Assembly (NCBI GenBank): GCA_964487615.1
Contig: CAZARM010000001.1
Location: 32,226 to 96,225, forward strand
From: an uncultured Candidatus Saccharibacteria bacterium
GTDB lineage: Bacteria; Patescibacteriota; Saccharimonadia; Saccharimonadales; CAZARM01
DNA length: 64,000 nt
Direction of reading: 5' to 3'
Shown here: positions 2,490 through 62,116 of the stretch, piece after piece
Layout of the letters: each line of letters opens with the position of its first letter
Position numbering within the stretch: position 1 is the stretch's first letter
The notes under the pieces: model-generated
Told to the model about the DNA's origin: nothing
Database searches by the model: none
Seen by the model: only the letters and a program-made list of their open reading frames with translations
Made by a program: the position numbers and the translations under genes

Positions 2490-3026
2490 TTACTCGGCCT
2501 TGGGAACTTCCTCGTGTTTAGCTATTGCCTCTTCAGCTTTAGCTTCGATCTTGGATTCTTCTTTGGCTTTTTCGGCTGCTTCGATCTCGTGCTGCTTTTC
2601 GGTCTCCTCCTTCAGTTTCTCGGCTTCAGCCTCGGCTTTTTCATCGACAATAGAATTTACAGCTTGGCGGTCGAAGTCTTGGCCTGTTAATCGAGCTGAT
2701 TTGCCAGTACGTGCGCGCATGTAAGTTAGATAATTGCGCCGGACCTTGCTGCGCTTTGTGACTTCAATCTTGACGACTAATGGACTATGGAGCAAGAAGC
2801 TCTTTTCGACACCGACGCCACTGGCAATGCGGCGCACCACGATCCGACTAGTGTGTGAGTTCTTGCGGTCAGTTCGAATAACCAGACCTTGAAAAATTTG
2901 GATTCGTTCTTTGCTGCCTTCACGAATTTTCTGGTGCACCTTAACAGTGTCGCCTGAATGAACGTCGACAATCTGTGGTTTCTTATAACGAGCTTCAATT
3001 TGGCTAATAACAGATGGCATAACCAA
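2490..3026 (-). CDS. rplS: 50S ribosomal protein L19 with a K/E/A-rich C-terminal extension of about 65 aa
   Basis: Core matches L19 (GDTVKVH.KI.EG.KERIQ.F.G.VI....G...T.T.R....GVGVE..F.LHSP....IEV.....VRR.KLYY.R). The tail DEKAEAEAEKLKEETEK... is low-complexity. Confidence 0.9.
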   Translation of the reverse strand: MVMPSVISQIEARYKKPQIVDVHSGDTVKVHQKIREGSKERIQIFQGLVIRTDRKNSHTSRIVVRRIASGVGVEKSFLLHSPLVVKIEVTKRSKVRRNYLTYMRARTGKSARLTGQDFDRQAVNSIVDEKAEAEAEKLKEETEKQHEIEAAEKAKEESKIEAKAEEAIAKHEEVPKAE

Positions 3027-3085
3027 TAGATATTACACTAAGTTACCCTTTTATGCAACTAGTTCTGATCTGTTATCATACATGC

Positions 3086-4219
3086 ATGGATTTCAATAAA
3101 ATAGCCCTCCAAAAACATAAACAATTGCGTGGAAAAATCGAGATTACTCTCAAAGATAAGTTAAACTCGCCGGACAAGTTGAGCACCTATTACACGCCTG
3201 GCGTAGCGGCGGTGTCTAGTTACGTGGCTGAGCACCCCGATGAAGCCCGGGACTACACCTGGCTCAACAACTCGGTGGCGGTTATTTCGGATGGATCAGC
3301 TGTTCTGGGGCTTGGAGATATCGGTCCGTATGGTGCATTGCCGGTTATGGAAGGCAAAGCCATGCTATTCAAGCACTTCGCTGGGATCGATGCTGTGCCA
3401 ATTGTGTTAGATGTACATACGGCTGATGAGATAGTCAGTGCAGTGCTTGCAATCGCACCGAGTTTTGGTGGCATAAATCTGGAAGACATTGCGGCTCCGA
3501 TTTGTTTTGAGGTCGAAGACCGCGTCAAAGCCGCGCTCAAGATTCCTGTCATGCACGACGACCAGCATGGGACAGCTGTAGTTGTGCTGGCTGGGCTTAT
3601 AAACGCTATGAAAGTAACTGGTCGAGATCTTAAAGATTGCCGGATTGTCACTGTCGGTGCCGGAGCTGCTGGCACTGCTATTATGAAGTTGTTGCATAAA
3701 TTTGCCGCCCCAGAGATTTTGGCGGTGGATAGCAAGGGCATTATTTCTGCCAAGCGGACAGATCTAAATGATGACAAGAAAAAGCTACTGAAGTTTACAA
3801 ATAAGCCCAATCTCAGCGGATCATTACAAGACGCTTTGAAAGGTGCTGATATATTTATCGGTGTCTCCAAGGCAGGCCTACTAACTGTCGATATGGTTAG
3901 ATCAATGAGTAAGGATCCAATAATTTTTGCTATGGCTAACCCAGTGCCAGAGATCATGCCGGACGAAGGCAAGATAGCCGGTGTTGCCGTCATGGCTACT
4001 GGTCGTAGTGACTTTCCCAATCAAGTAAATAATGCCCTGGCTTTTCCGGGTATTTTCCGTGGTGCACTAGACAATCGTGTCAGCAAGATCACTGATGAGC
4101 ACAAGATTGCTGCCGCTGAGGTTATTGCTAGCCTCGTAGACAACCCTACCGCAGAACAAATTATTCCCAGCGTTCTGGACGACCGTTTAGTCCCGGCCAT
4201 TGCGAAGGTGATCACCTAA
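3086..4219 (+). CDS. maeA: NAD(P)-dependent malic enzyme (short form)
   Basis: YTPGVA, SDGSAVLGLGDIG, DDQHGTAVV, GAGAAG and NQVNNALAFPGIFRGALD motifs. Start moved to ATG 3086 (MDFNK...); the ORF-track start at 3053 is also possible. Confidence 0.85.
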   Translation: MDFNKIALQKHKQLRGKIEITLKDKLNSPDKLSTYYTPGVAAVSSYVAEHPDEARDYTWLNNSVAVISDGSAVLGLGDIGPYGALPVMEGKAMLFKHFAGIDAVPIVLDVHTADEIVSAVLAIAPSFGGINLEDIAAPICFEVEDRVKAALKIPVMHDDQHGTAVVVLAGLINAMKVTGRDLKDCRIVTVGAGAAGTAIMKLLHKFAAPEILAVDSKGIISAKRTDLNDDKKKLLKFTNKPNLSGSLQDALKGADIFIGVSKAGLLTVDMVRSMSKDPIIFAMANPVPEIMPDEGKIAGVAVMATGRSDFPNQVNNALAFPGIFRGALDNRVSKITDEHKIAAAEVIASLVDNPTAEQIIPSVLDDRLVPAIAKVIT

Positions 4220-26860: not shown

Positions 26861-27883
26861 TTACTCGGCTTTTTTATGTATCAACTTGCCTGTATCAGCT
26901 ACCTGCTCAACCAGACGATTCGAGTAGCCCCATTCGTTGTCATACCAGATGACGACTTTTACCAGGTTTCCGGCTACCACATTGGTAAGCTCTAGATCTA
27001 CAATTCCGGAACGACTGTCGCCAATATAGTCACTACTCACAAGTGGTTCATCGGAGACTCCAATAATACCCTGGTAGTACGGCTCTTTTGAGGCTTTTGT
27101 AAGCAGATCGTTTATTTCCTCTTTGGTGCTGTCCTTCTTAAGCAACATGGTCACGTCACTTAAAGACACGACCGGCGTAGGCACCCGAACACTTAGGCCG
27201 TCAAACTTTCCTTTAAGACTCGGCACGGTCAGCGCTACCGCAATTGCTGCTCCAGTAGTGGTAGGCACAATGTTGTGTGCGGCGGCCCGACCTTCTCGGG
27301 GATCTTTAGTCGGGCTATCGGTAAGCGTTTGGCTGGCAGTATCACTATGTACGGTAGTCAGCATGGCCTTTTCGATGCCAAATTCGCGATCCATGATATC
27401 CATAATGGCGGCAATGCTGTTGGTAGTGCAGCTGGCATTGCTAATGATGTTGCCGGCTTTCTCTAACTCTTTGTCATTGGCACCAATTACGATGGTCTCT
27501 ATGTCATCACTTTTGGAGGGTGCGGAAATGACTACTTTTTTGGCACCCGCCTTGAGATGGGCCGAGGCGTCTTCGCTCTTGGTGAAACGCCCGGTCGACT
27601 CGATAACTACATCCACGTCCAGATCTTTCCATGGCAACATACTTGGATCTTTTTCTGCGGAAACGGGAATCGATGTGCCATCAACAATTAGATTCTTTTC
27701 GTCAAATGTCACCTTGTGCTCATATTTTCCATAGTTTGAGTCATGCACTAATAAATAGGCTAATTCCTTGGTATCGGTCAGGTCATTAATGCCGACAATC
27801 TCTAGATCAGTCCGTTCAAAAGCAATCCTAAAGCTGAGTCGGCCAATTCGCCCAAACCCATTTATTGCAACTCGTGTTTTCAT
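26861..27883 (-). CDS. gap: Glyceraldehyde-3-phosphate dehydrogenase
   Basis: INGFGRIGR and SNASCTTN active-site motif. 340 aa. Confidence 0.95.
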   Translation of the reverse strand: MKTRVAINGFGRIGRLSFRIAFERTDLEIVGINDLTDTKELAYLLVHDSNYGKYEHKVTFDEKNLIVDGTSIPVSAEKDPSMLPWKDLDVDVVIESTGRFTKSEDASAHLKAGAKKVVISAPSKSDDIETIVIGANDKELEKAGNIISNASCTTNSIAAIMDIMDREFGIEKAMLTTVHSDTASQTLTDSPTKDPREGRAAAHNIVPTTTGAAIAVALTVPSLKGKFDGLSVRVPTPVVSLSDVTMLLKKDSTKEEINDLLTKASKEPYYQGIIGVSDEPLVSSDYIGDSRSGIVDLELTNVVAGNLVKVVIWYDNEWGYSNRLVEQVADTGKLIHKKAE

Positions 27884-32205: not shown

Positions 32206-32598
32206 ATGGATAAGAATAAATGGGTAGTGGCGGCATTAATTGCCGTTGGTGCACTTGTGGCGCTTGTAGCAGTATTGCCCAAAACCAAACAAAGCAGTAC
32301 GGCTGCTAACATCACCCCGCCCACAGTTACCAGAATTACCGCCGAAGAAGTAGCCAGCCACGATAGTCGTGATGATTGTTGGACCGTGATTAATGGCAAA
32401 GTCTACAACATCACCGGCTTTATCTCCAGCCACCCCGGCGGGGACGAAATCTTGCGCGCCTGCGGTATTGATGCCACCAGCTTGTTCACCCAGCGCGAAA
32501 CCAGCAGTGGACAACCTGTCGGCTCGGGGACGCCTCACTCTAGCAGCGCCGCCAGCCAGCTAGCTAGCCTTCAAATCGGTGTGCTGTCATCTAACTAA
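32206..32598 (+). CDS. Cytochrome b5-like heme-binding domain protein with an N-terminal TM anchor
   Basis: Exact match to the cyt-b5 heme signature [FY]-[LIVMK]-x-x-H-P-[GA]-G in FISSHPGG. Context HDSRDDCWTVINGKVYNITGF...DATSLF. Second His in TPHSS. RBS aaaggggga sits before the ATG. Confidence 0.75.
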   Translation: MDKNKWVVAALIAVGALVALVAVLPKTKQSSTAANITPPTVTRITAEEVASHDSRDDCWTVINGKVYNITGFISSHPGGDEILRACGIDATSLFTQRETSSGQPVGSGTPHSSSAASQLASLQIGVLSSN

Positions 32599-38092: not shown

Positions 38093-39868
38093 TTAGGTTG
38101 CTATGTCAAACTTCTGCAATTTCTTCTTGTTGAGCTCGGAGCGCTTGCCTCGCTGCAATTCCAGTAGCTGGGCATAGATGCCACCACTCTTAGATAGTTT
38201 AGCAGGTGAACCAATTTCGTCGATAGTGCCGTTTCTGAGCGTAATGATTTGGTCAACGTGACTGATGGTACTTAAGCGGTGGGCAATAATGATGGTGGTA
38301 CGTCCGCGCATTAGTCGTTCCAGAGCTTCCTGGACCATGCCCTCGGACCGGCTGTCTAGACTGCTCGTGGCTTCGTCCAAGATTAAAATTGGCGCGTCCT
38401 TGAGCAAGGCCCGGGCTATGGCAATGCGCTGTTTTTGACCTCCAGAAAGTTTCAGCCCACGCTCACCAATTTCGGCATCGTAACCATCATCTAACTTGCT
38501 GATAAACTCGTGGGCATTGGCGGCTTTGGCGGCCGCAACAACCTGTTCTTCCGTAGCACCGTGGTGTGCGTAAGAGATATTTTCTCTAATCGTTCCGGAA
38601 AATAGGGCTGGCTCCTGAAAAACCACGCCGATGCCCTGGCGAAGGCTATTCTGGGTGACTGATTGGATGTCTTGACCATCAATAGTAATATTGCCTTTTT
38701 CTGGCTCATAAAGCCTCAGTAGTAGGTTAGTTAGGGTGGTTTTGCCCTCGCCACTCTCGCCCACCAAGGCAATTTTGGTATCTGGCTCAATGCTTAGCGT
38801 TATATCGTGTAATACCGGTTGTTTTTGATCGTAACTAAAGCTAACGCCGTCAAATTCAATCTGACCCTGCTTGACCTGAAGCTTTTTGGCATTCGAATGA
38901 TCTGATATTTCTGGCCGCAGATTCATAACCTCGAAGTAGTCACGGCTATCGGCTACGGCCTTCTGGGTATTTTCTACCAAGAAGCTAATAGTAAAGATTG
39001 GGATGCGGATTTGCTGCGATAGCAATATCAGGGCAACTGCCACGCCCGGCGTATAAACACCATGGGCAGCCTGCAAAAATATAAACAGATAGACAAAAAA
39101 GAACGTTACGTTTAGCACCAGCCGGCGGCGGACATCGCGGGTATGCCAAAAGTTTGATTGCGGGCGGTTGATCTCGACCGCCTTTTGGAGCCTAGCGGTA
39201 AAGAAGTTTAGTTCCCGCTTTTCTGTAATGAAGCTTTTGACGACCTTGACCTGACCGATGGCTTCGGCAAAGCGACCAGTGGCGATGTCAGACTGCAAGT
39301 TTTTTTCAGCCTGGTACTGTTGCCAGGTGTTGCTGGTTCTAACCGTTAGCCAGATGTATATCGGGTACAGGGCTAATAGCAGCAGCGCTACTGGCCAACT
39401 ATAGTACGCCACCACAACCAGCGAGAAAATCGTCGTTAGAATAAACTGCAGGAAGTTATTGCTCATCATTTGCATGAAATTAGCAATCTGCAGAATAGAG
39501 CGATTTAAGCGGTTGATGATTTTGCCTGACAATTCGGTGTCAAAATAACGCTGGGGTAGGCTCAGCAAGTGTTCATAGTAGCGAACTGATAGGATTTTAA
39601 TGAGCTTGGCAGACATCTGATCGCCTAGGTAACCACCGACATTGTTAAGCACTGTGCCCATGACGTCCAACACAAAGATTCCTAAGGCTATCAAACCCAA
39701 GTAACGGAAGGAGGCGGTAGACCCTTTGCGGATTTCATCAATCGCCCAACCGCTCAAGATTGGCAGGAGCAAGCCGCTGAGACTAACCAGCACCATGATA
39801 ATGCTGATACCAACGTAGTAGCCGCGCAGCTCACTGGCCGATTTTAAAATCTTGATAATGTGTTTCAT
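38093..39868 (-). CDS. ABC transporter, fused permease/ATP-binding (type I exporter, MsbA-like)
   Basis: 6-TM N-domain. Walker A GESGEGKTT, ABC signature LSGGQKQR, Walker B ILILDEATS. Confidence 0.9.
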   Translation of the reverse strand: MKHIIKILKSASELRGYYVGISIIMVLVSLSGLLLPILSGWAIDEIRKGSTASFRYLGLIALGIFVLDVMGTVLNNVGGYLGDQMSAKLIKILSVRYYEHLLSLPQRYFDTELSGKIINRLNRSILQIANFMQMMSNNFLQFILTTIFSLVVVAYYSWPVALLLLALYPIYIWLTVRTSNTWQQYQAEKNLQSDIATGRFAEAIGQVKVVKSFITEKRELNFFTARLQKAVEINRPQSNFWHTRDVRRRLVLNVTFFFVYLFIFLQAAHGVYTPGVAVALILLSQQIRIPIFTISFLVENTQKAVADSRDYFEVMNLRPEISDHSNAKKLQVKQGQIEFDGVSFSYDQKQPVLHDITLSIEPDTKIALVGESGEGKTTLTNLLLRLYEPEKGNITIDGQDIQSVTQNSLRQGIGVVFQEPALFSGTIRENISYAHHGATEEQVVAAAKAANAHEFISKLDDGYDAEIGERGLKLSGGQKQRIAIARALLKDAPILILDEATSSLDSRSEGMVQEALERLMRGRTTIIIAHRLSTISHVDQIITLRNGTIDEIGSPAKLSKSGGIYAQLLELQRGKRSELNKKKLQKFDIAT

Positions 39869-39989
39869 TATCTAAAGCTTAACAGGCTAAGTTAGCCTTG
39901 CCTACCTGTTTTTGATTGACTAATCTTCCAAAACTTACGAACAGCTATGTGTTCTTAAACTTTGGGAGAAGACAGATGTGAGAAGTTTT

Positions 39990-40470
39990 ATAGAAAAGAA
40001 AGGGAGCGAAGGCTCGACCAAACATTTTCTAACCTGCGTCAGTTATCTCCTTGTAGAACCAGTGGGTCCCCGACCTCGCGACTTTGCGCGGGAGCAGATG
40101 GCTGCGAGGTCGGGGACACCTGCTGGGGTGGTAAGAGCGTGGACTGCTCTCTTACCGCATGGGGCCTAGGGCCTCACGAATGGGCCTGGCGGTTGTTCAC
40201 ACGCATCTTTCCAGCGGCGGGTGCTGAAACGACGGGGATCACACCACCAGGCACCAAATGGAGCTATAAATTACAGCTCTCGAACTTGACCAGTGGTCTC
40301 TCGTAGCGCCGTTGTACGGGCAGTTTCGCATATCTGCGTCGCTGACACTACGAGAGACTCACCGGGCTGGTGGGGCGAAATCGGGAAACGCCAGGTCGGG
40401 GCGAACGGCCTGCAGCGACAGAACACGGACGAAGTTTCTTCGTACGCCTGGAACTCCATCTCTGGAATAC
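39990..40470. ncRNA. Candidate structured ncRNA locus (strand unresolved). About 58-60% GC, ORF-poor, with several long perfect helices.
   Basis: Helix 40065-40079/40103-40117 (15 bp); the same arm can also pair with 40391-40405. Helix GGTAAGAG/CTCTTACC at 40130-40157. Helix 40291-40307/40349-40367. Weak resemblance to RNase P CR-II (GGGGUGGUAAGAGCG) and to ACAGAAC. No canonical P4, and no tmRNA tag ORF found. Confidence 0.3.
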
Positions 40471-40480
40471 GCTTCCCTTG

Positions 40481-40551
40481 CTCCGCCAGTAGGACTCGAA
40501 CCTACAACCTCCTCACCTGAGTGAAGTGCTCTGCCATTGAGCTATGACGAA
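40481..40551 (-). ncRNA. tRNA-like element. Acceptor stem, D-arm (GCTC-AATGGCA-GAGC) and T-arm (GTAGG-TTCGAGT-CCTAC) are canonical. The anticodon region instead forms a 6-bp/4-nt hairpin (CTTCAC-TCAG-GTGAGG). No 7-nt anticodon loop can be drawn. CCA is not encoded.
   Basis: Folded manually from the reverse complement. The U1-A72 acceptor stem has two G-U pairs. It is either a tRNA pseudogene or the tRNA-like module of the adjacent GC-rich RNA. Confidence 0.35.
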
Positions 40552-40960
40552 AGGAACTTTTAACTACATCGTAGTCTATGATGACTATTCACGTACTCGC
40601 GAACAAACATCATAGACCACTGGGCAAAAAATTCCTGCCGGGCTATCCTAGTTCAAAAAATAACTTAAATCACATCTGTCAAAGTACGTTTCAGGAGCCA
40701 AAACTCAACCGAAACAGCTTCATTTATACCACAAGAGCCAACTTCTATCAACTATAATTACCCACTAGGGACGCTCTAGACAGCACGGATGTCACGCCTC
40801 TCCACTATAGTGCCAGCCATTTTCTCCACCAGAAGCGGACCAGGCTGTACAACAAGGTACTGCTTGGGAGTATCGGAGTTGACAAATGGCTGTGGTGCAA
40901 AGAGATTAGCGGTGCTGTTGGCTCCTGCCAGCAGGCAGGCTAATCGGTGGAGAGGCATGA

Positions 40961-42700
40961 CTACCAGCCGCCACCACCGCCTCCACCACCACCACCTCCG
41001 GAAAAACCACCGCCGCCGCTGCCCGAGCTACTAGAGCTAGTGGAGGCCGAAAAGCTACTATTCATGGCCGAGACACCGGTTGTTAAAGTGTTCGCAAATG
41101 CCGCCATCTGGAACGTCGAGAAGTTGCCGTCGTACCAGCTTGGCGGTTGTTTATAGATATCCTCAAATTGCTTGGACCAGGACTTCTCGACGCCCAAGGC
41201 CACTGCAAATGGCAGCAGCTTTTCAAACAGCTCAACTGTTTGGGACGGTGCGGCATACGGCCGGTCTACGCTTTGAAGCATCTTGAGCCGGTCTTTCTCG
41301 GCCGTCTTCATATATAGTTCCAAGCCTTTGACTTTTTCATAAGCCTCCACGCCGGCGTGACTGCGGCGGCGCATTAGGCCAGCATAGAAAATTGCGCTTA
41401 ACATAGCCCAGATTAGCCCTAAAATCCAGCCCCAACCCTGGCCAGTGACAAACAGCAACACAAAAGAACCCACTGCTGTAGCAATCAGCCAGTTACGCAC
41501 GTGAGTCGGCTTGTCTTCGAACAGACCATAATCTTTAGTTAGCTTGGACTTGAGGTCTCTCCGAATAACGGTAACTGTGGTGTACATAGCTGTTCGATCG
41601 ATTTTTGAGATACTCTGAAGTGCGCCTTTAGTGGCGGGGCTAAACAATGTCCCCAGCAAGGACGACTCATGGGGCTTAAGACCAGCGAAATCATCATTGA
41701 CTAGCTCCAGGGAAAATTCGCGTTTTTTAAACACTAGCGCCTGGGTCTTCTGTTCGTCATGGATCTGGATGTAACCACGCACAGCTAGATCAATGATCGT
41801 GGCAGACAGATCTCGGCCATCTACCCGGTAATCCATCAGCAGCCCGACTTCCGCTGGCGACAGACCCTTGGGTGGTTCGTACTCCGGCACAATTACGCCA
41901 CGACCTTTGTAATCTTTGCCGTATTTGCGCCACACATTAAAGCACACCAGGCTAGTAATCACACCGGTGGCTATGCCTACCAGCTGCCACCAGTTGTCCC
42001 GCAGCCAATCATTACGGTCGCGCGGTGTGATCAAGCCCTTTTGTAAAGGCGAGGCGACTGTTAGCGTCTCAAAAGCCTCTAAACGACGGCTAGCCTCAAA
42101 TTTATAGCCTCTATCAGTTCTTGTCAGCTGGCAAGCCTGTTCTGTACTGCCAAGTTTTCCGGTGTAGCATGCTGGTGTGGGCAAGCCCTGATCATTCCAA
42201 GACGCTGGGAAGATAACTTCACCAGCGACTTTTTCAAACGGTTGACCCCACTGATTACCATTTACGTCCCAGTACCACTCGTCAAAGCCGTTCTGGTAAT
42301 TGACTACACCTATCATTTCGTACTTGATCTTGTAGCTATGATCACCAGTGATGGTTTGATTAGCATTGCCTATCTTTAGAACTTTATTATTAGCCTGTTC
42401 GTAGCTGGTAAAAGGTTCGCTGTTACCATCACGCTCAATTGATGTGACGTGCAATTTCGCTGAGTGGCCTTGATAATCAGTTGGTATAGCCCGGTAGATT
42501 CCGTGGTTATAATCGCTGAAGGTCAGATGAATGTCTTCTTCTACCTGCAAACGGCCGCCATGAACGTCGTTAAACAATTCGTAGCGGCCGTCGAACTCGT
42601 GGATGACAAAGTCATTAACGTCCGCGTCGGCACGGCCAGGTAATAGAAATAGCACTGACGCAATAAACGTCAGGGTCAGGAGTGCGAATAGCTTTTTCAT
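40961..42700 (-). CDS. DUF2207-like membrane protein with a signal peptide, two TM helices and a Gly-rich C-terminal tail
   Basis: Domain order and the terminal SGSGGGGFSGGGGGGGGGGGW tail are typical of the DUF2207 family. Confidence 0.55.
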   Translation of the reverse strand: MKKLFALLTLTFIASVLFLLPGRADADVNDFVIHEFDGRYELFNDVHGGRLQVEEDIHLTFSDYNHGIYRAIPTDYQGHSAKLHVTSIERDGNSEPFTSYEQANNKVLKIGNANQTITGDHSYKIKYEMIGVVNYQNGFDEWYWDVNGNQWGQPFEKVAGEVIFPASWNDQGLPTPACYTGKLGSTEQACQLTRTDRGYKFEASRRLEAFETLTVASPLQKGLITPRDRNDWLRDNWWQLVGIATGVITSLVCFNVWRKYGKDYKGRGVIVPEYEPPKGLSPAEVGLLMDYRVDGRDLSATIIDLAVRGYIQIHDEQKTQALVFKKREFSLELVNDDFAGLKPHESSLLGTLFSPATKGALQSISKIDRTAMYTTVTVIRRDLKSKLTKDYGLFEDKPTHVRNWLIATAVGSFVLLFVTGQGWGWILGLIWAMLSAIFYAGLMRRRSHAGVEAYEKVKGLELYMKTAEKDRLKMLQSVDRPYAAPSQTVELFEKLLPFAVALGVEKSWSKQFEDIYKQPPSWYDGNFSTFQMAAFANTLTTGVSAMNSSFSASTSSSSSGSGGGGFSGGGGGGGGGGGW

Positions 42701-45183: not shown

Positions 45184-45605
45184 GCCAAGTCTCCGAACTC
45201 GGTCAGTGTTGCAGTTTCTTCAGGGTGAGCCAGATCAGAATAGCGTAGCCAGGTAGGAGTGATCAGGAAGTAGACTTGGCCGGCTTCACCAGCAAACCTT
45301 TTGGCAGCCGGGACTTTTTCATAATGTTTAGCCACCCGCTCTTCCAGCTCGTCACCTGTTACTTGGTGAGCTTGCCCCTCATACTGAACAGTTATAGCAC
45401 CTTCGGTGCCGACTACTAACGCCACGGCCGGATTTGCTTTGAGGTTAGGATACTTTCGGCTTTTTTCATTGGTGCCTATAAAAAACTGGTATTGCGCGTT
45501 ATGAGAAAACCCTATCGTCGCCGCTTGGGGCTTTCCGTCCTGATTAACCGTTGCTAAGACACAAGTATTGTGGCCACTCAAAAATTCATTAATCTTGTTG
45601 CTCAT
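45180..45605 (-). CDS. Pyridoxamine 5'-phosphate oxidase-family (FMN-binding split-barrel) protein, inserted between pheS and pheT
   Basis: 141 aa. N-terminal TCVLATVNQDGKPQAATIGF...NPAVALVV pattern typical of the PPOX/general stress protein 26 family. Overlapping start and stop with both neighbours. Confidence 0.65.
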   Translation of the reverse strand: MSNKINEFLSGHNTCVLATVNQDGKPQAATIGFSHNAQYQFFIGTNEKSRKYPNLKANPAVALVVGTEGAITVQYEGQAHQVTGDELEERVAKHYEKVPAAKRFAGEAGQVYFLITPTWLRYSDLAHPEETATLTEFGDLA

Positions 45606-46657
45606 TTGAACTGCCTCAGGAAGTCTAGTTTGCCAGAGTGGAAATTACGGACGTCTTCGATGTCGTACTTCATCATGACTAATCTATCCAGTCCCATGCC
45701 GCCAGCAAAACCAGTGTAAATCTCTGGATCGATGCCAGCCATTTTTAGAACATTGGGGTGAACCATGCCCATGCCTAACAGCTCAATCCAACCGCTGTAA
45801 CTACAAACATTGCAGCCCTTTTTGCGACAAAACGGACAGCTCAGGGCCAGCTCTAGGCTGGGCTCGGTGAATGGAAAGTAAAATGGCTGGCTCTTGATTT
45901 CTAACTTCTGCCCGTAGTATTCCTCTAAAAATGTTTTGAAGGTAGCTATCAGATTGCCGGCGTGGATGCCCTTGCCAACATACATAATCTCTACCTGGTA
46001 GAAGGTATGCTCATGTCTGGCATCAACGTCTTCGTTGCGGAAGGTCCGGCCAGTGTAAACGGTACTGATGGGAGTTCCTTTTTCCAAGCCAGCTTTGCCC
46101 TGTTTTAAGACACGAGTTTGCATAATACTGGCGTGTGCTGGTGCCACGTAAGGATGGCCATTTTTGTCCATCTCTTTGGTCATAAAGGTGTCATAGTCGT
46201 CCCTCGCCGGGTGTCCAGCCGGAAAGTTGAGCGAACTAAACATGTGATATTCATCGTCTAACTGCCGGGATTCCACGGCATTGAAGCCCATACGGTAGAA
46301 AATATCTAGCACATGATCCAGCTCCGTCATTAATGGGTGCTTACTGCCTAGGCTGCTGGGCAACACCGTTGGTCGTTGCTCAGACTCTACGTTCACGTCA
46401 AAGGGAGCGGTAACGTCGATCGGCTGCAACTTCTCGGCTTTGTCAGCGTGTTCAGCAACTAATTGCTCAAGTTCCGCCTTTAGCTTGTTAATCTCCTTGC
46501 CAAATGAGCCTCTGTCTTCAGCGGGCAGTGTTGTGATCTCTGAGTATAGTGCTTTTAGCTCCACCGACTTCAAAATTTCGGTCTTGTTATCAAGTTCCGA
46601 CAACCGACTTTTTAGAGCCTTCGCAACTTCAGCAATTTTAGGATTTTGGTAGCTCAT
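45602..46657 (-). CDS. pheS: Phenylalanine--tRNA ligase alpha subunit
   Basis: Class II aaRS motifs (FPFTEPS, GMGLDRLVM). 351 aa. Confidence 0.95.
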   Translation of the reverse strand: MSYQNPKIAEVAKALKSRLSELDNKTEILKSVELKALYSEITTLPAEDRGSFGKEINKLKAELEQLVAEHADKAEKLQPIDVTAPFDVNVESEQRPTVLPSSLGSKHPLMTELDHVLDIFYRMGFNAVESRQLDDEYHMFSSLNFPAGHPARDDYDTFMTKEMDKNGHPYVAPAHASIMQTRVLKQGKAGLEKGTPISTVYTGRTFRNEDVDARHEHTFYQVEIMYVGKGIHAGNLIATFKTFLEEYYGQKLEIKSQPFYFPFTEPSLELALSCPFCRKKGCNVCSYSGWIELLGMGMVHPNVLKMAGIDPEIYTGFAGGMGLDRLVMMKYDIEDVRNFHSGKLDFLRQFK

Positions 46658-46699
46658 TGTGAATTCCAGTATAACAGATGGGCAACAGAGAGCAGTATA

Positions 46700-46728
46700 T
46701 TGACATATCTTGACGCTTATGCTATAAT
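46700..46728 (+). promoter_or_regulatory. Sigma70-type promoter, TTGACA-17 bp-TATAAT, driving the GC-rich ORF at 46884
   Basis: Exact consensus hexamers with 17-bp spacing, read directly. About 150-nt 5' UTR with hairpins at 46737-46763 and 46789-46832. Confidence 0.6.
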
Positions 46729-46883
46729 GTATTAGTTTTCAGTGGAGTTTACTCCTGAAAACGCCCTTTGACAGAGTAGAGAAGAAATAGATTGGCACTA
46801 TTGCGCATAGAGCCGTGCTCAGCAATGCCAATCTATCTCAATATCCCCTAGCATTCACCCACACACCGTTCCGAGGAGGAACA

Positions 46884-47351
46884 ATGTCATTCCGTCCGAC
46901 CCAACGCGGTAATCGCACCCTGCATGTGATAGCGGTCCTCGTGGCTGCCATCTGCGCATCCCTCATCGTGAGCCTCACGTACGGATACGGAGATGATCCC
47001 AGACCTGCCAACCCCTACACCCCCACCCCCTCCGGCCAAGAAGCCATCGACGGCGTTGCGCCACCAGGAATCACCATTTCCTACGGAGTGAACTCCCTGT
47101 ACGTCGCAACCAGCAGTCGGCTCAATGACCGTCCCAACGTCACCTTCATCCTCCCCCTCACCGAGGAAGATGATCGTCGACTGGACGAGATGTTGCCGCA
47201 GGGCAAAGACATCGTCAGGGAGCTGGCCAAGATCGACGAGATCGAGGTCATCTACCTTCTGGAAGACGGTGTGGTCGTCGACTACAAGCCGGGCTCATCA
47301 CGAGATGAACTGCTCGACCAGGTCACGACCATCATCGGAATGTACGGGTGA
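46884..47351 (+). CDS. Membrane-anchored, Pro-rich-linker secreted protein of unknown function. Its GC3-rich codon usage is compositionally foreign.
   Basis: Start set at ATG 46884, preceded by the GAGGAGGA RBS. TM helix HVIAVLVAAICASLIVSL, linker DDPRPANPYTPTPSGQEAIDGVAPPG, and a C-terminal domain of about 110 aa. Most codons end in G/C, unlike the neighbouring genes. Confidence 0.6.
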   Translation: MSFRPTQRGNRTLHVIAVLVAAICASLIVSLTYGYGDDPRPANPYTPTPSGQEAIDGVAPPGITISYGVNSLYVATSSRLNDRPNVTFILPLTEEDDRRLDEMLPQGKDIVRELAKIDEIEVIYLLEDGVVVDYKPGSSRDELLDQVTTIIGMYG

Positions 47352-47355
47352 AAGT

Positions 47356-47404
47356 GTGGCGGAGGTCAGGTCGTTCCGATTTTTCGGTACAACCCCCTCC
47401 GCCA
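47356..47404 (+). terminator. Stem-loop terminator-like structure after the GC-rich ORF (GTGGCGGAGG ... CCTCCGCCAC, 10-bp stem, internal mini-hairpin CCGAttttTCGG)
   Basis: Read directly. No clean T-run. Confidence 0.4.
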
Positions 47405-47478
47405 CCCTAAACCCTCTACTCTGTCACTTCACCATAGGAACTAAACTTTAGTCCCTGCGGTGAGGTACAATAATCACT

Positions 47479-47976
47479 ATGGCTAACTTCTCTTTTGATA
47501 TTGTTTCTGAGTACGACAAGGCGGAGATGAACAATGTTTTTGACCAGACCCGCCGGGAAATGGACAACCGTTATGATTTTAAAGGCACCCCGGCAGAAAT
47601 TGATTGGCTCGGCGATGATAAGTCCGGGTTCAAAGTAACGGGCAGTGGTGATTGGCAGATAGACGCAATTCTGGACATTGTCCGCAAAAAGCTAGCCTCC
47701 CGCAACCAAAGCCAAAAAGTATTAGATACCTCTAAAGAATCTGTGGTCAGCAATATGAAGACCACTAAAGAAGTACTGTTCAAACAGGGCTTAAGCCAAG
47801 ACAACGCCAAAAAGATCACCGCACTAATTCGCGATAATGTTCCAAAGGTCAAAACCCAGATCCAGGGAGACGCAGTCCGCGCCACCAGCGGCAGCAAAGA
47901 CGACCTTCAAGCAGTCATGCACTTGTTACAGTCCAAAGACTTCGATTTCCCCCTAAGCTTCACTAACTACCGCTAA
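47479..47976 (+). CDS. yajQ: YajQ-family (UPF0234) nucleotide/cyclic-di-GMP-binding protein
   Basis: Strong similarity along the whole length to the E. coli YajQ pattern (SFDIVSE.D..E..N...Q..RE...RYDFKG ... QIQGD.VR.TS.S.DDLQAVM...Q.DF..PL.F.NYR). Confidence 0.85.
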   Translation: MANFSFDIVSEYDKAEMNNVFDQTRREMDNRYDFKGTPAEIDWLGDDKSGFKVTGSGDWQIDAILDIVRKKLASRNQSQKVLDTSKESVVSNMKTTKEVLFKQGLSQDNAKKITALIRDNVPKVKTQIQGDAVRATSGSKDDLQAVMHLLQSKDFDFPLSFTNYR

Positions 47977-61776: not shown

Positions 61777-61860
61777 AGCGTATATTATGTCACTTTTACA
61801 AGTGCATGTCGACTGTCATAGCCAAGCATCCGGCAATCAGGTATAATTCCACCCTGTTAT

Positions 61861-61935
61861 TGGGGAGTGGCCAAGTGGTAAGGCACCAGGTTCTGGTCCT
61901 GGCATTCGGGGGTTCGAGTCCCTCCTCCCCAGCCA
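61861..61935 (+). tRNA. tRNA-Gln (anticodon CUG), CCA encoded
   Basis: Manual cloverleaf: UGGGGAG acceptor (U1-A72), D-arm GCC-AAGUGGUAA-GGC, anticodon arm CCAGG-UUCUGGU-CCUGG, T-arm GGGGG-UUCGAGU-CCCUC, then G-CCA. Near-identical architecture to E. coli tRNA-Gln. Confidence 0.9.
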
Positions 61936-61943
61936 ATAAAAAT

Positions 61944-61970
61944 GTCCGCATTCTTGCGGGCTTTTTTATT
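61944..61970 (+). terminator. Rho-independent terminator after tRNA-Gln (GTCCGCA-ttct-TGCGGGC followed by TTTTTT)
   Basis: Read directly. Confidence 0.7.
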
Positions 61971-61974
61971 GGCT

Positions 61975-62105
61975 TGTGCGGGAGGAGGGGCTCGAACGGG
62001 ATTGCATGTCTGCAATCCCCGCCCCTAGCCTCAGAACGACCAAAGGGAGTTGGGGTCGTCTTAACAAAACTTACTTTTGTTTTGTGACGAGGCGAGTCCC
62101 TCCCC
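61975..62105. other. Structured element of about 130 nt with complementary G-rich/C-rich termini (GGGAGGAGGGGCUCG ... CGAGUCCCUCCCC) and an internal perfect hairpin (GGGATTGCA-loop-TGCAATCCC). It contains a T-loop-like CCCGTTCGAGCCCC on the minus strand but does not fold as a tRNA.
   Basis: Manual folding. It lies in the 3' region of the phosphoesterase gene, between that gene and tRNA-Gln. Confidence 0.3.
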
Positions 62106-62116
62106 ATCCAACCTGG

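Follow-up and report, generated by a model that had tools for sequence, protein, structure and literature searches.

A small gene enclosed by predicted RNA helices lies in a 64,000-nucleotide (nt) stretch of DNA from an uncultured Candidatus Saccharibacteria bacterium (positions 32,226 to 96,225 of contig CAZARM010000001.1, assembly GCA_964487615.1; hereafter the window, whose numbering is used throughout unless another locus is named). The whole unit, from its promoter to the end of its last hairpin, spans 46700-47465 on the plus strand and holds an open reading frame (ORF) of 155 amino acids (aa), between the divergent pheS gene (45602-46657, minus strand) and the yajQ/DUF520 gene (47479-47976, plus strand), so that it is inserted between the promoters of these two genes. 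The closest PheS match to the window is 78% identical, and the PheS relatives are soil Saccharibacteria (Saccharimonadales). We refer to the framed 155-aa gene as the cassette, to the flanking promoter and helices as the frame, and to whatever a frame encloses as its cargo.

All elements of the unit are on the plus strand. Its sigma70-type promoter (46700-46728) has a −35 box (TTGACA, 46700-05) and a −10 box (TATAAT, 46723-28) separated by a 17-nt spacer that contains an extended −10 TG (46720-21); 12 of 12 positions match consensus, and the promoter is invariant across all five lineages that carry the gene, including the spacer part GCTTATGCTATAATG. Hairpin P1 (46735-46762; GUUUUCAG..GGAG..CUCC..CUGAAAAC) begins 6 nt past the −10 box, where the transcript is predicted to start; its 11 pairs are 100% paired in seven sequences, with G-U/A-U switches, and its GUYGAG...YUCC core is seen again in frames with other cargo. 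A conserved CNUUGACA motif immediately precedes the 5′ arm of a long-range closing helix (46769-46781, UGACAGAGUAGAG), which is followed by P2, a long imperfect leader hairpin (46784-46839, inverted repeat I1) of 20 pairs, 4 of them with compensatory double changes and 97% of cells paired. The Shine-Dalgarno (SD) sequence GAGGAGGAA (46873-46881), whose GGAGGAA is invariant in all carrier lineages, lies 2 nt upstream of the ATG of the coding sequence (CDS; 46884-47351), which encodes a predicted transmembrane (TM) anchor, a Pro-rich linker, and an acidic alpha/beta ectodomain. Right after the stop codon comes P3, a GC-rich hairpin without a U-tract (47353-47408, GUGGCGGAGG...CCUCCGCCAC, inverted repeat I4), in which GGAGG/CCUCC changes in compensatory fashion to GGGAG/CUCCC. 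The 3′ arm of the closing helix (47414-47426, CUCUACUCUGUCA) is the complement of 46769-81, so that the ORF lies between the halves of a perfect inverted repeat of 13 nt (TGACAGAGTAGAG / CTCTACTCTGTCA); the 13-nt arm has just these two exact copies within the window. Hairpin P4 (47427-47465, CUUCACC...GGUGAGG) abuts the closing helix, and its 3′ end touches the −10 box of yajQ. Among the 16 pairs of P4, 7 have undergone compensatory double changes, and pairing holds in 98% of cells; its inner stem is wholly different in the window from that of other lineages, yet pairs.

This map agrees with most of what the initial annotation had read from the locus, namely, a self-contained unit with a perfect sigma70 promoter, a structured 5′ untranslated region (UTR) of about 150 nt (the leader is ~149 nt long, with hairpins at 46735-62 and 46784-839), a strong ribosome-binding site, and a 3′ stem-loop (47353-408); the inverted repeat and the fourth hairpin, P4, had been missed. 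A scan of the plus strand called no intrinsic terminator, P3 being followed by CCCUAAAC and P4 by UACAAUAA, neither of which is a U-tract, and we found no promoter-like site on the minus strand inside the unit and no antisense RNA. Several candidate elements were considered and rejected: the TTGACA in the arm as a second −35 box (by eye, there is no suitably spaced −10 box), a hammerhead-like CUGAUGAG in P4 (the window copy does not conserve it), the a1/a2 repeats of a retron (no reverse transcriptase gene occurs in the ORF lists of the region, and the span is too long), and an integron attC site (the unit does not resemble one and brings its own promoter).

Homologues of the 155-aa protein are few and confined to Saccharibacteria. 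An exhaustive HMMER pass over 1.84 billion representative proteins returned three true homologues (26 to 33% identity) and one repetitive false match (P0005, 416 aa, matched through low complexity in the Pro-rich segment); a fourth homologue came from a profile search of 5.8 billion proteins, neither search found any outside Saccharibacteria, and cluster look-ups gave a total of five lineages, window included. A word-indexed protein search returned the query itself only. The gene sits between pheS and yajQ, in a single orientation, in 13 of 13 contigs (L001-2, L078-80, and L086-94), and neither it nor its flank motifs occur in any of 75 GTDB species representatives that were retrieved through PheS; the cassette is also missing from the nearest PheS relatives, L003 and L004. 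In a neighbor-joining tree of PheS, carriers occupy three places: a clade of L079, L087, L080, L091, and L086, whose sister L047 lacks the gene; L078, sister to L013 and L017; and the window, sister to L003. Among carriers, the identity of the cassette protein tracks that of PheS (r = 0.87), amounting to 0.26-0.34 at PheS identities of 0.65-0.69, 0.34-0.36 at 0.71, and 0.41-0.57 at 0.80-0.82, a scaling that indicates co-divergence at about three times the PheS rate. Judged from these sequences, the gene is an old, fast-evolving, lineage-specific gene of the Saccharimonadales.

Searches of phage and plasmid DNA with the cassette gave no match, and the window ORF list contains no mobility genes or integrase, and no att site or tRNA flank; there was likewise no PHROG or PADLOC match. 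The pattern of promoter plus P1 produced only chance matches in the Joint Genome Institute (JGI) metagenomes and IMG/VR (L081-L085, with unrelated downstream sequence); one of these, L081 (identical to L085, IMG/VR UViG_3300020078_000487), is a viral-classified contig, a chance pattern match that provides no phage link. The pheS/yajQ spacer is itself a hotspot, ranging from 22 bp to 2.3 kb among 52 relatives in which the two genes are adjacent (window 46658-47478; L003-L077). In relatives, this spacer holds purF with a second ORF of ~200 aa or various hypothetical proteins, in either orientation, and a coiled-coil protein recurs there in L003, L013, and L016.

Read in order, the frame consists of the promoter, P1, the CAUUGACAG arm, P2, the cargo, P3, the complementary arm, and P4. 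For seven sequences whose 5′ and 3′ UTRs were concatenated, RNAalifold predicts P1, a 12-pair long-range helix, P2, P3, and P4, with P4 abutting the long-range helix without a spacer. Pairing extends to 97% of the cells in the UTR alignment (versus 40-48% with slid partners), 14 pairs have changed on both sides (versus 6.1 ± 1.6 in shuffles, 0 of 500 of which reach that number), and the hairpins persist in five lineages by way of compensatory changes. Genomes with a PheS identity of only ~65% still share an unchanged promoter (including some of its spacer), an identical 5′ arm (TTGACAGAGTAGAGA), and the same P2 lower stem and SD. Substitutions in the 3′ arm of carriers are all C-to-U (L079 and L086) and keep G-U pairs on the plus-strand RNA; such pairs, together with changes in this arm that are exclusively C-to-U, place the structure on the plus-strand RNA and not on duplex DNA. 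The minimum free energy (MFE) fold of the 732-nt transcript retains every helix (z = −8.1). Rfam searches of 46640-47500 yielded chance-level matches to microRNA and long noncoding RNA families only, and the other frames described below matched no family besides the tRNA family. We regard the frame as very probably a real structure at the RNA level, a conserved architecture that no Rfam family matches and that is apparently undescribed.

The gene within this frame is the strongest compositional outlier of the window. The G+C content (GC) is 0.583-0.585 in 400-nt intervals at 46800-47399 and 0.588 over the ORF, as compared with 0.43-0.55 in the surrounding 10 kb, in keeping with the reported rise to about 58-60%. 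Calculated gene by gene, GC at third codon positions (GC3) is 0.724 in the ORF and ranks first among the 61 window ORFs (mean, 0.521; standard deviation, 0.060; z of ~3.4). The GC3 expected for this 155-aa sequence under window codon usage is 0.52 ± 0.04, and the observed value was reached in 0 of 20,000 draws (P < 5e-5). The excess is of C only (C3, 0.51 versus a background of 0.29; G3 is not raised), as exemplified by ATC (11 of 13), ACC (9 of 11), and TAC (8 of 8). The initial description of codons ending almost exclusively in G or C was right about the strength of the bias but overstated its extent, as 72% of codons end in G or C. An excess of GC3 is present in every carrier lineage, independent of host GC: cassette and neighbor values are 0.66 versus 0.55 in L078, 0.665 versus 0.51-0.56 in L079, 0.81 versus 0.61-0.65 in L080, and 0.68 versus ~0.38-0.41 in L086. 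No C3 bias is seen in the window genes for ribosomal protein L19 (2490-3026), GAPDH (26861-27883), and aldolase, so that the cassette bias does not appear to be ordinary genome-wide translational selection, and an explanation by the usual expression-linked codon bias is not supported. Nor is the bias a by-product of secondary structure within the CDS, which folds like other genes (z = −1.7).

Comparisons of close strains show that this composition is being kept. Between L079 and L087, synonymous divergence (dS) is 0.0045 in the cassette, 0.153 in pheS, and 0.020 in yajQ (Fisher P = 4e-5 for the synonymous deficit of the cassette); between L080 and L091, the respective values are 0.10, 0.48, and 0.33 (Fisher P = 5e-8), with nonsynonymous divergence (dN) of 0.039, 0.027, and 0.016. 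Synonymous sites and UTRs of the cassette thus evolve 3-30 times more slowly than the neighboring genes, whereas dN is equal or higher; UTR divergence between the close strains, assessed by eye, is ~0.01 and ~0.07. At depth, the noncoding flanks are far better conserved than the protein, and the nucleotide sequence of the CDS is not conserved. A recent transfer would reduce both dS and dN, and a decaying foreign signature is unprotected at synonymous sites; low dS with normal to high dN therefore indicates that the GC3 bias is maintained and is not a relic. The C-ending bias appears to be maintained by selection, or conceivably by biased conversion, and not to stem from donor ancestry. The advantage of C-ending codons might lie in decoding, with single GNN tRNAs reading NNC best, or in the avoidance of A/U-rich RNase sites.

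The N terminus of the protein (net charge, +3) leads into a single hydrophobic stretch of 19 residues with a mean Kyte-Doolittle hydropathy of 2.65; the Pro-rich DDPRPANPYTPTPSG comes next, and then an ectodomain of ~105 aa with a net charge of −12. This layout fits an N-in/C-out topology and bears out the TM anchor, Pro-rich stalk, and extracellular domain proposed at the outset (TM segment at about residues 13-31, linker at ~37-51, and ectodomain at ~60-155). Inspection by eye for the marks of a Sec signal peptide or a lipoprotein gives a hydrophobic region of ~19-21 residues, and neither an AxA site nor a lipobox is conserved among the aligned proteins. The homologues P0002, P0003, P0004, and P0006 share this architecture and the motifs NPYxPT..GxEA.xG..P, (I/L)PL, and an I(G/A)xxG C terminus. 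These four also possess, between the TM anchor and NPYxPT, a Cys-x-SPED-x-Cys loop that is lost in the window protein (alignment A4) and that, from its sequence, probably forms a disulfide.

Searches of the protein against Pfam, NCBIfam, PHROGs, PADLOC, and PDB sequences returned nothing significant. An AlphaFold2 model (mean pLDDT, 67.7; 70-90 over residues 61-155) arranges the ectodomain as beta-beta-beta-alpha-alpha-beta-beta-alpha, and its best Foldseek matches in the PDB are SAV1430, a NifU-like N-domain, and SeR13 (2ffm, 1pqx, 2ltl, 2ltm, and 2k1h; E values of 2e-3 to 2e-2; target-normalized TM-scores of ≤0.65). Weak Pfam matches to Nfu_N (PF08712) occur in 3 of 8 family members (best E = 0.0036), the window protein having none, and SeR13 matches the family profile weakly (E = 0.18). 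The model and these sequence matches are suggestive of an ectodomain that distantly resembles the Nfu_N/SAV1430 fold, a resemblance and not membership: Nfu_N, SAV1430, and SeR13 domains are cytoplasmic Fe-S-scaffold modules, whereas the ectodomain here is predicted to be membrane anchored and extracytoplasmic, is very acidic, and scores below family thresholds. The rapid evolution of the protein, its predicted outside location, and its high acidity are in line with a part of the envelope that is exposed, and it is probably an abundant component of the cell surface; a role in host contact or phage recognition would, as speculation, fit its fast evolution.

The frame is not restricted to the cassette. 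A covariance model (R1) built from P1, the arm, and P2 also matches loci without the cassette gene (L074, L059, L030, L055, L068, and the window itself at 40640-40715, minus strand), and each match is preceded by a −35/−10 pair. A regular-expression census over 922 kb, which was used for P1 across cargo types because MAFFT alignment A7 proved structurally inconsistent, extended the set to L042, L004, and another site in L087. Wherever sequence is available, the complement of a frame's own 5′ arm lies 0.4-0.8 kb downstream, just before a P4-like hairpin, where the chance expectation for a 12-nt complement within 1.6 kb is ~1e-4. The 5′ and 3′ arms are GACAAGTGAATA and TATTCACTTGTC in L059, GACAAAAGAAAGTG and CACTTTCTTTTGTC in L042, GACAGGTGTAAATA and TATTTAAACCTGTC in L074, GACAGGTGTGATTA and TAATCACACCCGTC in L004, GACAGGTGTGATA and TATCACACCTGTC in L087 (minus strand), and GACAGATGTGA and TCACATCTGTC in the second frame of the window. 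The closing helix, of 12-14 bp, covaries: in a comparison of 12 frames with four classes of cargo, both sides have changed at 10 of its 14 pairs, involving 35 cells versus 12.8 ± 2.6 in shuffles (0 of 500), counts that are biased in that the 3′ arms of noncassette frames were located by complementarity.

What the frames enclose varies widely and includes at least three unrelated small proteins, as well as tRNA-like stretches or stretches without a long ORF. The frame in L042 (~1435-2403 in plus coordinates, minus strand) holds a 144-aa soluble protein with no Pfam match, whose GC3 over the full 168-codon ORF call is 0.93 versus 0.69 for pheS. Frames in L059 (8110-8546), L055 (4560-5041), and L068 (9606-10087) enclose CxxCxGxG-repeat proteins of 57-61 aa, with a GC of 0.54-0.57 in loci of 0.37 GC and weak matches to DnaJ-Zn-finger or anti-TRAP-like proteins. 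The cargo of the second window frame (WIN2), L074, L004, and L087 is GC-rich, lacks a long ORF, and is mutually nonalignable. Several frames occupy a syntenic slot between ATP-binding cassette (ABC) transporter genes and pheT (L074, 10596-11226; L004, 9641-10325; L087, ~2741-3595 in plus coordinates; L030, 12754 to the end of the locus). The L087 frame in this slot holds a 33-aa CxxC mini-ORF. Cargo appears to turn over or to diverge very fast inside a conserved frame.

The second frame in the window (39925-40716, minus strand) sits between an ABC-transporter gene (38093-39868) and a DUF2207 gene (40961-42700). It comprises P1 (40715-40688), a 5′ arm (GACAGAUGUGA, 40680-70), a 3′ arm (UCACAUCUGUC, 39981-71), and a P4-like hairpin, enclosing a long hairpin, a tRNA-like element (40551-40480), and ~480 nt of GC-rich sequence without a long ORF. 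Its R1 match scores 22 bits (E of ~1e-3), and its MFE fold keeps P1, an 11-bp closing helix, and P4 (z = −10.1). ARAGORN labels the tRNA-like element "tRNA-???", the Rfam tRNA model scores it at 52 bits, and by eye it has a 4-nt anticodon loop; besides tRNA, no Rfam family matches this frame. From its sequence, the second window frame may be an undescribed processed RNA. An ORF at 39962-40306 (plus strand), antisense to the GC-rich cargo and with a GC of 0.60 at second codon positions, is almost certainly not a gene, and the same holds for an ORF at 61796-62107 (minus strand) that overlaps a tRNA (61861-61932).

The genes flanking the cassette are organized differently. A −10 box (TACAAT, 47466-47471, plus strand) lies 7 nt before the yajQ ATG (47479), and cassette-free relatives have TATAAT or TACAAT 6-7 nt ahead of the same start. 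More broadly, −10-like boxes occur 6-11 nt upstream of the pheS (46668-46673, minus strand) and yajQ starts, with no SD, and the short pheS/yajQ spacers of L054, L047, L048, and others show the same boxes. The recurrence of these boxes across the family suggests that pheS and yajQ are probably leaderless, which would place yajQ outside the unit, and that leaderless mRNAs are common in the clade. Framed genes, unlike pheS and yajQ, have long leaders and strong SDs.

The explanation that we consider probable overall is that of an old, lineage-restricted gene whose RNA frame serves stable, high expression and whose synonymous bias is maintained. On this model, the consensus promoter would yield a discrete mRNA of ~730 nt with the P1 hairpin at its 5′ end; pairing between the two UTRs through a helix of 12-13 bp would close the coding region into a loop, with P2 and P3 inside, and the closing helix would stack on the 3′ hairpin P4. 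The frame could shield the RNA ends from 5′-end-dependent and 3′ exonucleolytic decay, could act as a double-strand-specific (RNase III-type) processing stalk, or both. Together with the strong promoter and SD, it would provide a stable, abundant message insulated from the probably leaderless pheS and yajQ. That the frame functions in stabilization or processing for high expression is suggested by analogy, and our confidence in this function is evenly balanced.

Three kinds of known system offer such analogies. In the processing stalks of rRNA operons, long-range helices flank 16S and 23S rRNA and are cut by RNase III, sites for which also exist in phage T7. The frame resembles these in its strong promoter, leader hairpin, and covarying cargo-closing helix, and in surrounding seemingly noncoding cargo as well; a covarying long-range helix flanking the cargo is one mark of an RNase III stalk, cleavage within about two helical turns of dsRNA being another. 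The frame differs in that the cargo of the cassette is a protein-coding mRNA and in that the helix is just 12-15 bp, extended by predicted coaxial stacking on the 16-bp P4; we also recognized no boxA-like sequence in the unit. In the hok mRNA of the hok/sok type I toxin-antitoxin system, fold-back inhibition results from pairing of the 5′ tac and 3′ fbi elements, and 5′ and 3′ UTRs also pair in icaR of Staphylococcus aureus. Pairing of the ends across the whole ORF and, for hok, a membrane protein as the product are shared features, but the protein here is 155-196 aa with a folded ectodomain and not a toxin of <60 aa, the SD takes no part in the pairing, and no antisense RNA was found. Finally, 5′-terminal stabilizer hairpins occur in the ompA leader of Escherichia coli and the ermC and aprE leaders of Bacillus subtilis. 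The cassette shares with ompA-type leaders a hairpin within ~0-2 nt of the 5′ end, a long leader, and a putatively strongly expressed mRNA for an envelope protein; here, however, the start is a predicted one, and P1 is one element of a larger conserved frame.

Several points weigh against the explanation that we favor. The role in stabilization or processing is drawn from architecture and from analogy to ompA-type 5′ hairpins and rRNA processing stalks, and a closing helix of 12-15 bp is short for a classical RNase III substrate. Translational selection is not evident in the genome, given the unbiased L19, GAPDH, and aldolase genes, and the CDS alone is of ordinary foldedness, within the range of other genes. 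The fold and family similarities of the ectodomain fall short of significance thresholds. The search by complementarity colors the pair counts of noncassette frames, although each 3′ arm lies at the expected place. Lastly, with carriers at three scattered positions whose sisters are noncarriers, vertical descent needs many losses.

This scatter is also the starting point of the rival that survives best, though we judge it unlikely: the frame could be the hallmark of a mobile or exchangeable family of Saccharibacterial cassettes at preferred slots, moved, for example, by homologous recombination after DNA uptake, with GC-biased gene conversion raising GC3. Besides the patchy carriers in the PheS tree, such exchange would account for the unrelated cargo of a pheS/yajQ spacer that varies from 22 bp to 2.3 kb, the nonalignable cargo framed in the ABC-transporter/pheT slot, frames conserved far above their cargo, cargo GC that always exceeds that of the host, and low dS between strains. 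Yet the identity of the cassette scales with that of the host PheS, dN is not lowered along with dS, the cassette is in the same slot in 13 of 13 contigs, and no recombinase genes or target-site duplications were found. Moreover, the elements covary, with G-U pairs on one strand only, as expected from a constraint on RNA and not from DNA recombination sites.

It is improbable that the unit functions mainly through its transcript, as a structured RNA or an RNA with two functions, and that the ORF is secondary or incidental. UTRs and synonymous sites are indeed more constrained than the protein, the whole transcript is strongly folded (z = −8.1), and a sister frame with a tRNA-like element and no long ORF is more so (z = −10.1). 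An intact ORF of 155-196 codons is nevertheless kept in five lineages, along with its SD, TM segment, motifs, and stop position, at protein identities of 26-57%, and the CDS alone has an ordinary folding z-score and nucleotides that are not conserved at depth.

More doubtful still is the explanation put forward in the initial annotation, in which the cassette was recently transferred from a high-GC donor, possibly an actinobacterial host, and its GC3 is a donor signature. The unit looks like a horizontally acquired islet insofar as it is the top GC3 outlier of the window, has its own promoter, is absent from most relatives (including L003, L004, and the 75 species representatives, the sister-genome comparison that had been proposed), and occupies an intergenic slot of varying cargo. 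Unlike such an islet, however, it has no donor homologue, the best matches expected in Actinobacteria being Saccharibacterial without exception in the exhaustive searches, and no phage or plasmid match, integrase, att site, or tRNA flank. In relatives, the gene has an identical context and like composition: five deeply diverged lineages, in which the cassette co-diverges with PheS, agree in slot and GC3 offset, and depressed dS with normal or high dN is the opposite of a neutral relic. We are highly confident that the gene is not a recent high-GC import. Least credible is that the 13-bp inverted repeats are invertase sites at which the ORF segment flips relative to a fixed promoter to give a phase-varying surface protein, a typical target of such switches, since the perfect repeats do flank exactly the SD, ORF, and P3 with the promoter outside, but 13 of 13 contigs show a single orientation, the C-to-U-only arm changes preserve G-U pairs in RNA that would be mismatches in DNA, the arms vary between cargo types yet stay complementary, unlike recombinase sites, the frame also surrounds cargo without a long ORF, and no recombinase gene is evident nearby.

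An old, lineage-restricted gene with a frame for stable expression thus remains our preferred reading. A broader proposition, which we advance tentatively and with somewhat less than even confidence, is that the frame is an undescribed, Saccharibacteria-wide modular RNA scaffold, similar to a processing stalk, that encloses unrelated, fast-evolving, GC-enriched cargo at fixed slots and imposes constraint on synonymous sites.

The cassette illustrates that an island of elevated GC3 the size of one gene may have its own promoter and yet not have been acquired horizontally; its bias appears instead to be a selected, conserved property of the transcript. The cell-surface biology of Saccharibacteria and their attachment to hosts are poorly understood, and the cassette adds an orphan protein family, found in 5 lineages among ~15 billion proteins, that is predicted to be surface exposed and evolves fast. 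Provided that the frame does control the stability or processing of RNA, it would offer a handle on posttranscriptional control in bacteria of the candidate phyla radiation (CPR), along with a practical marker by which the small genes and RNAs that they express most strongly could be found. Should the modular scaffold prove true, it could define a previously unseen class of elements for the maturation or stability of bacterial RNA, or it could mark the ends of a novel kind of exchangeable gene module in these ultra-small epibiotic bacteria.

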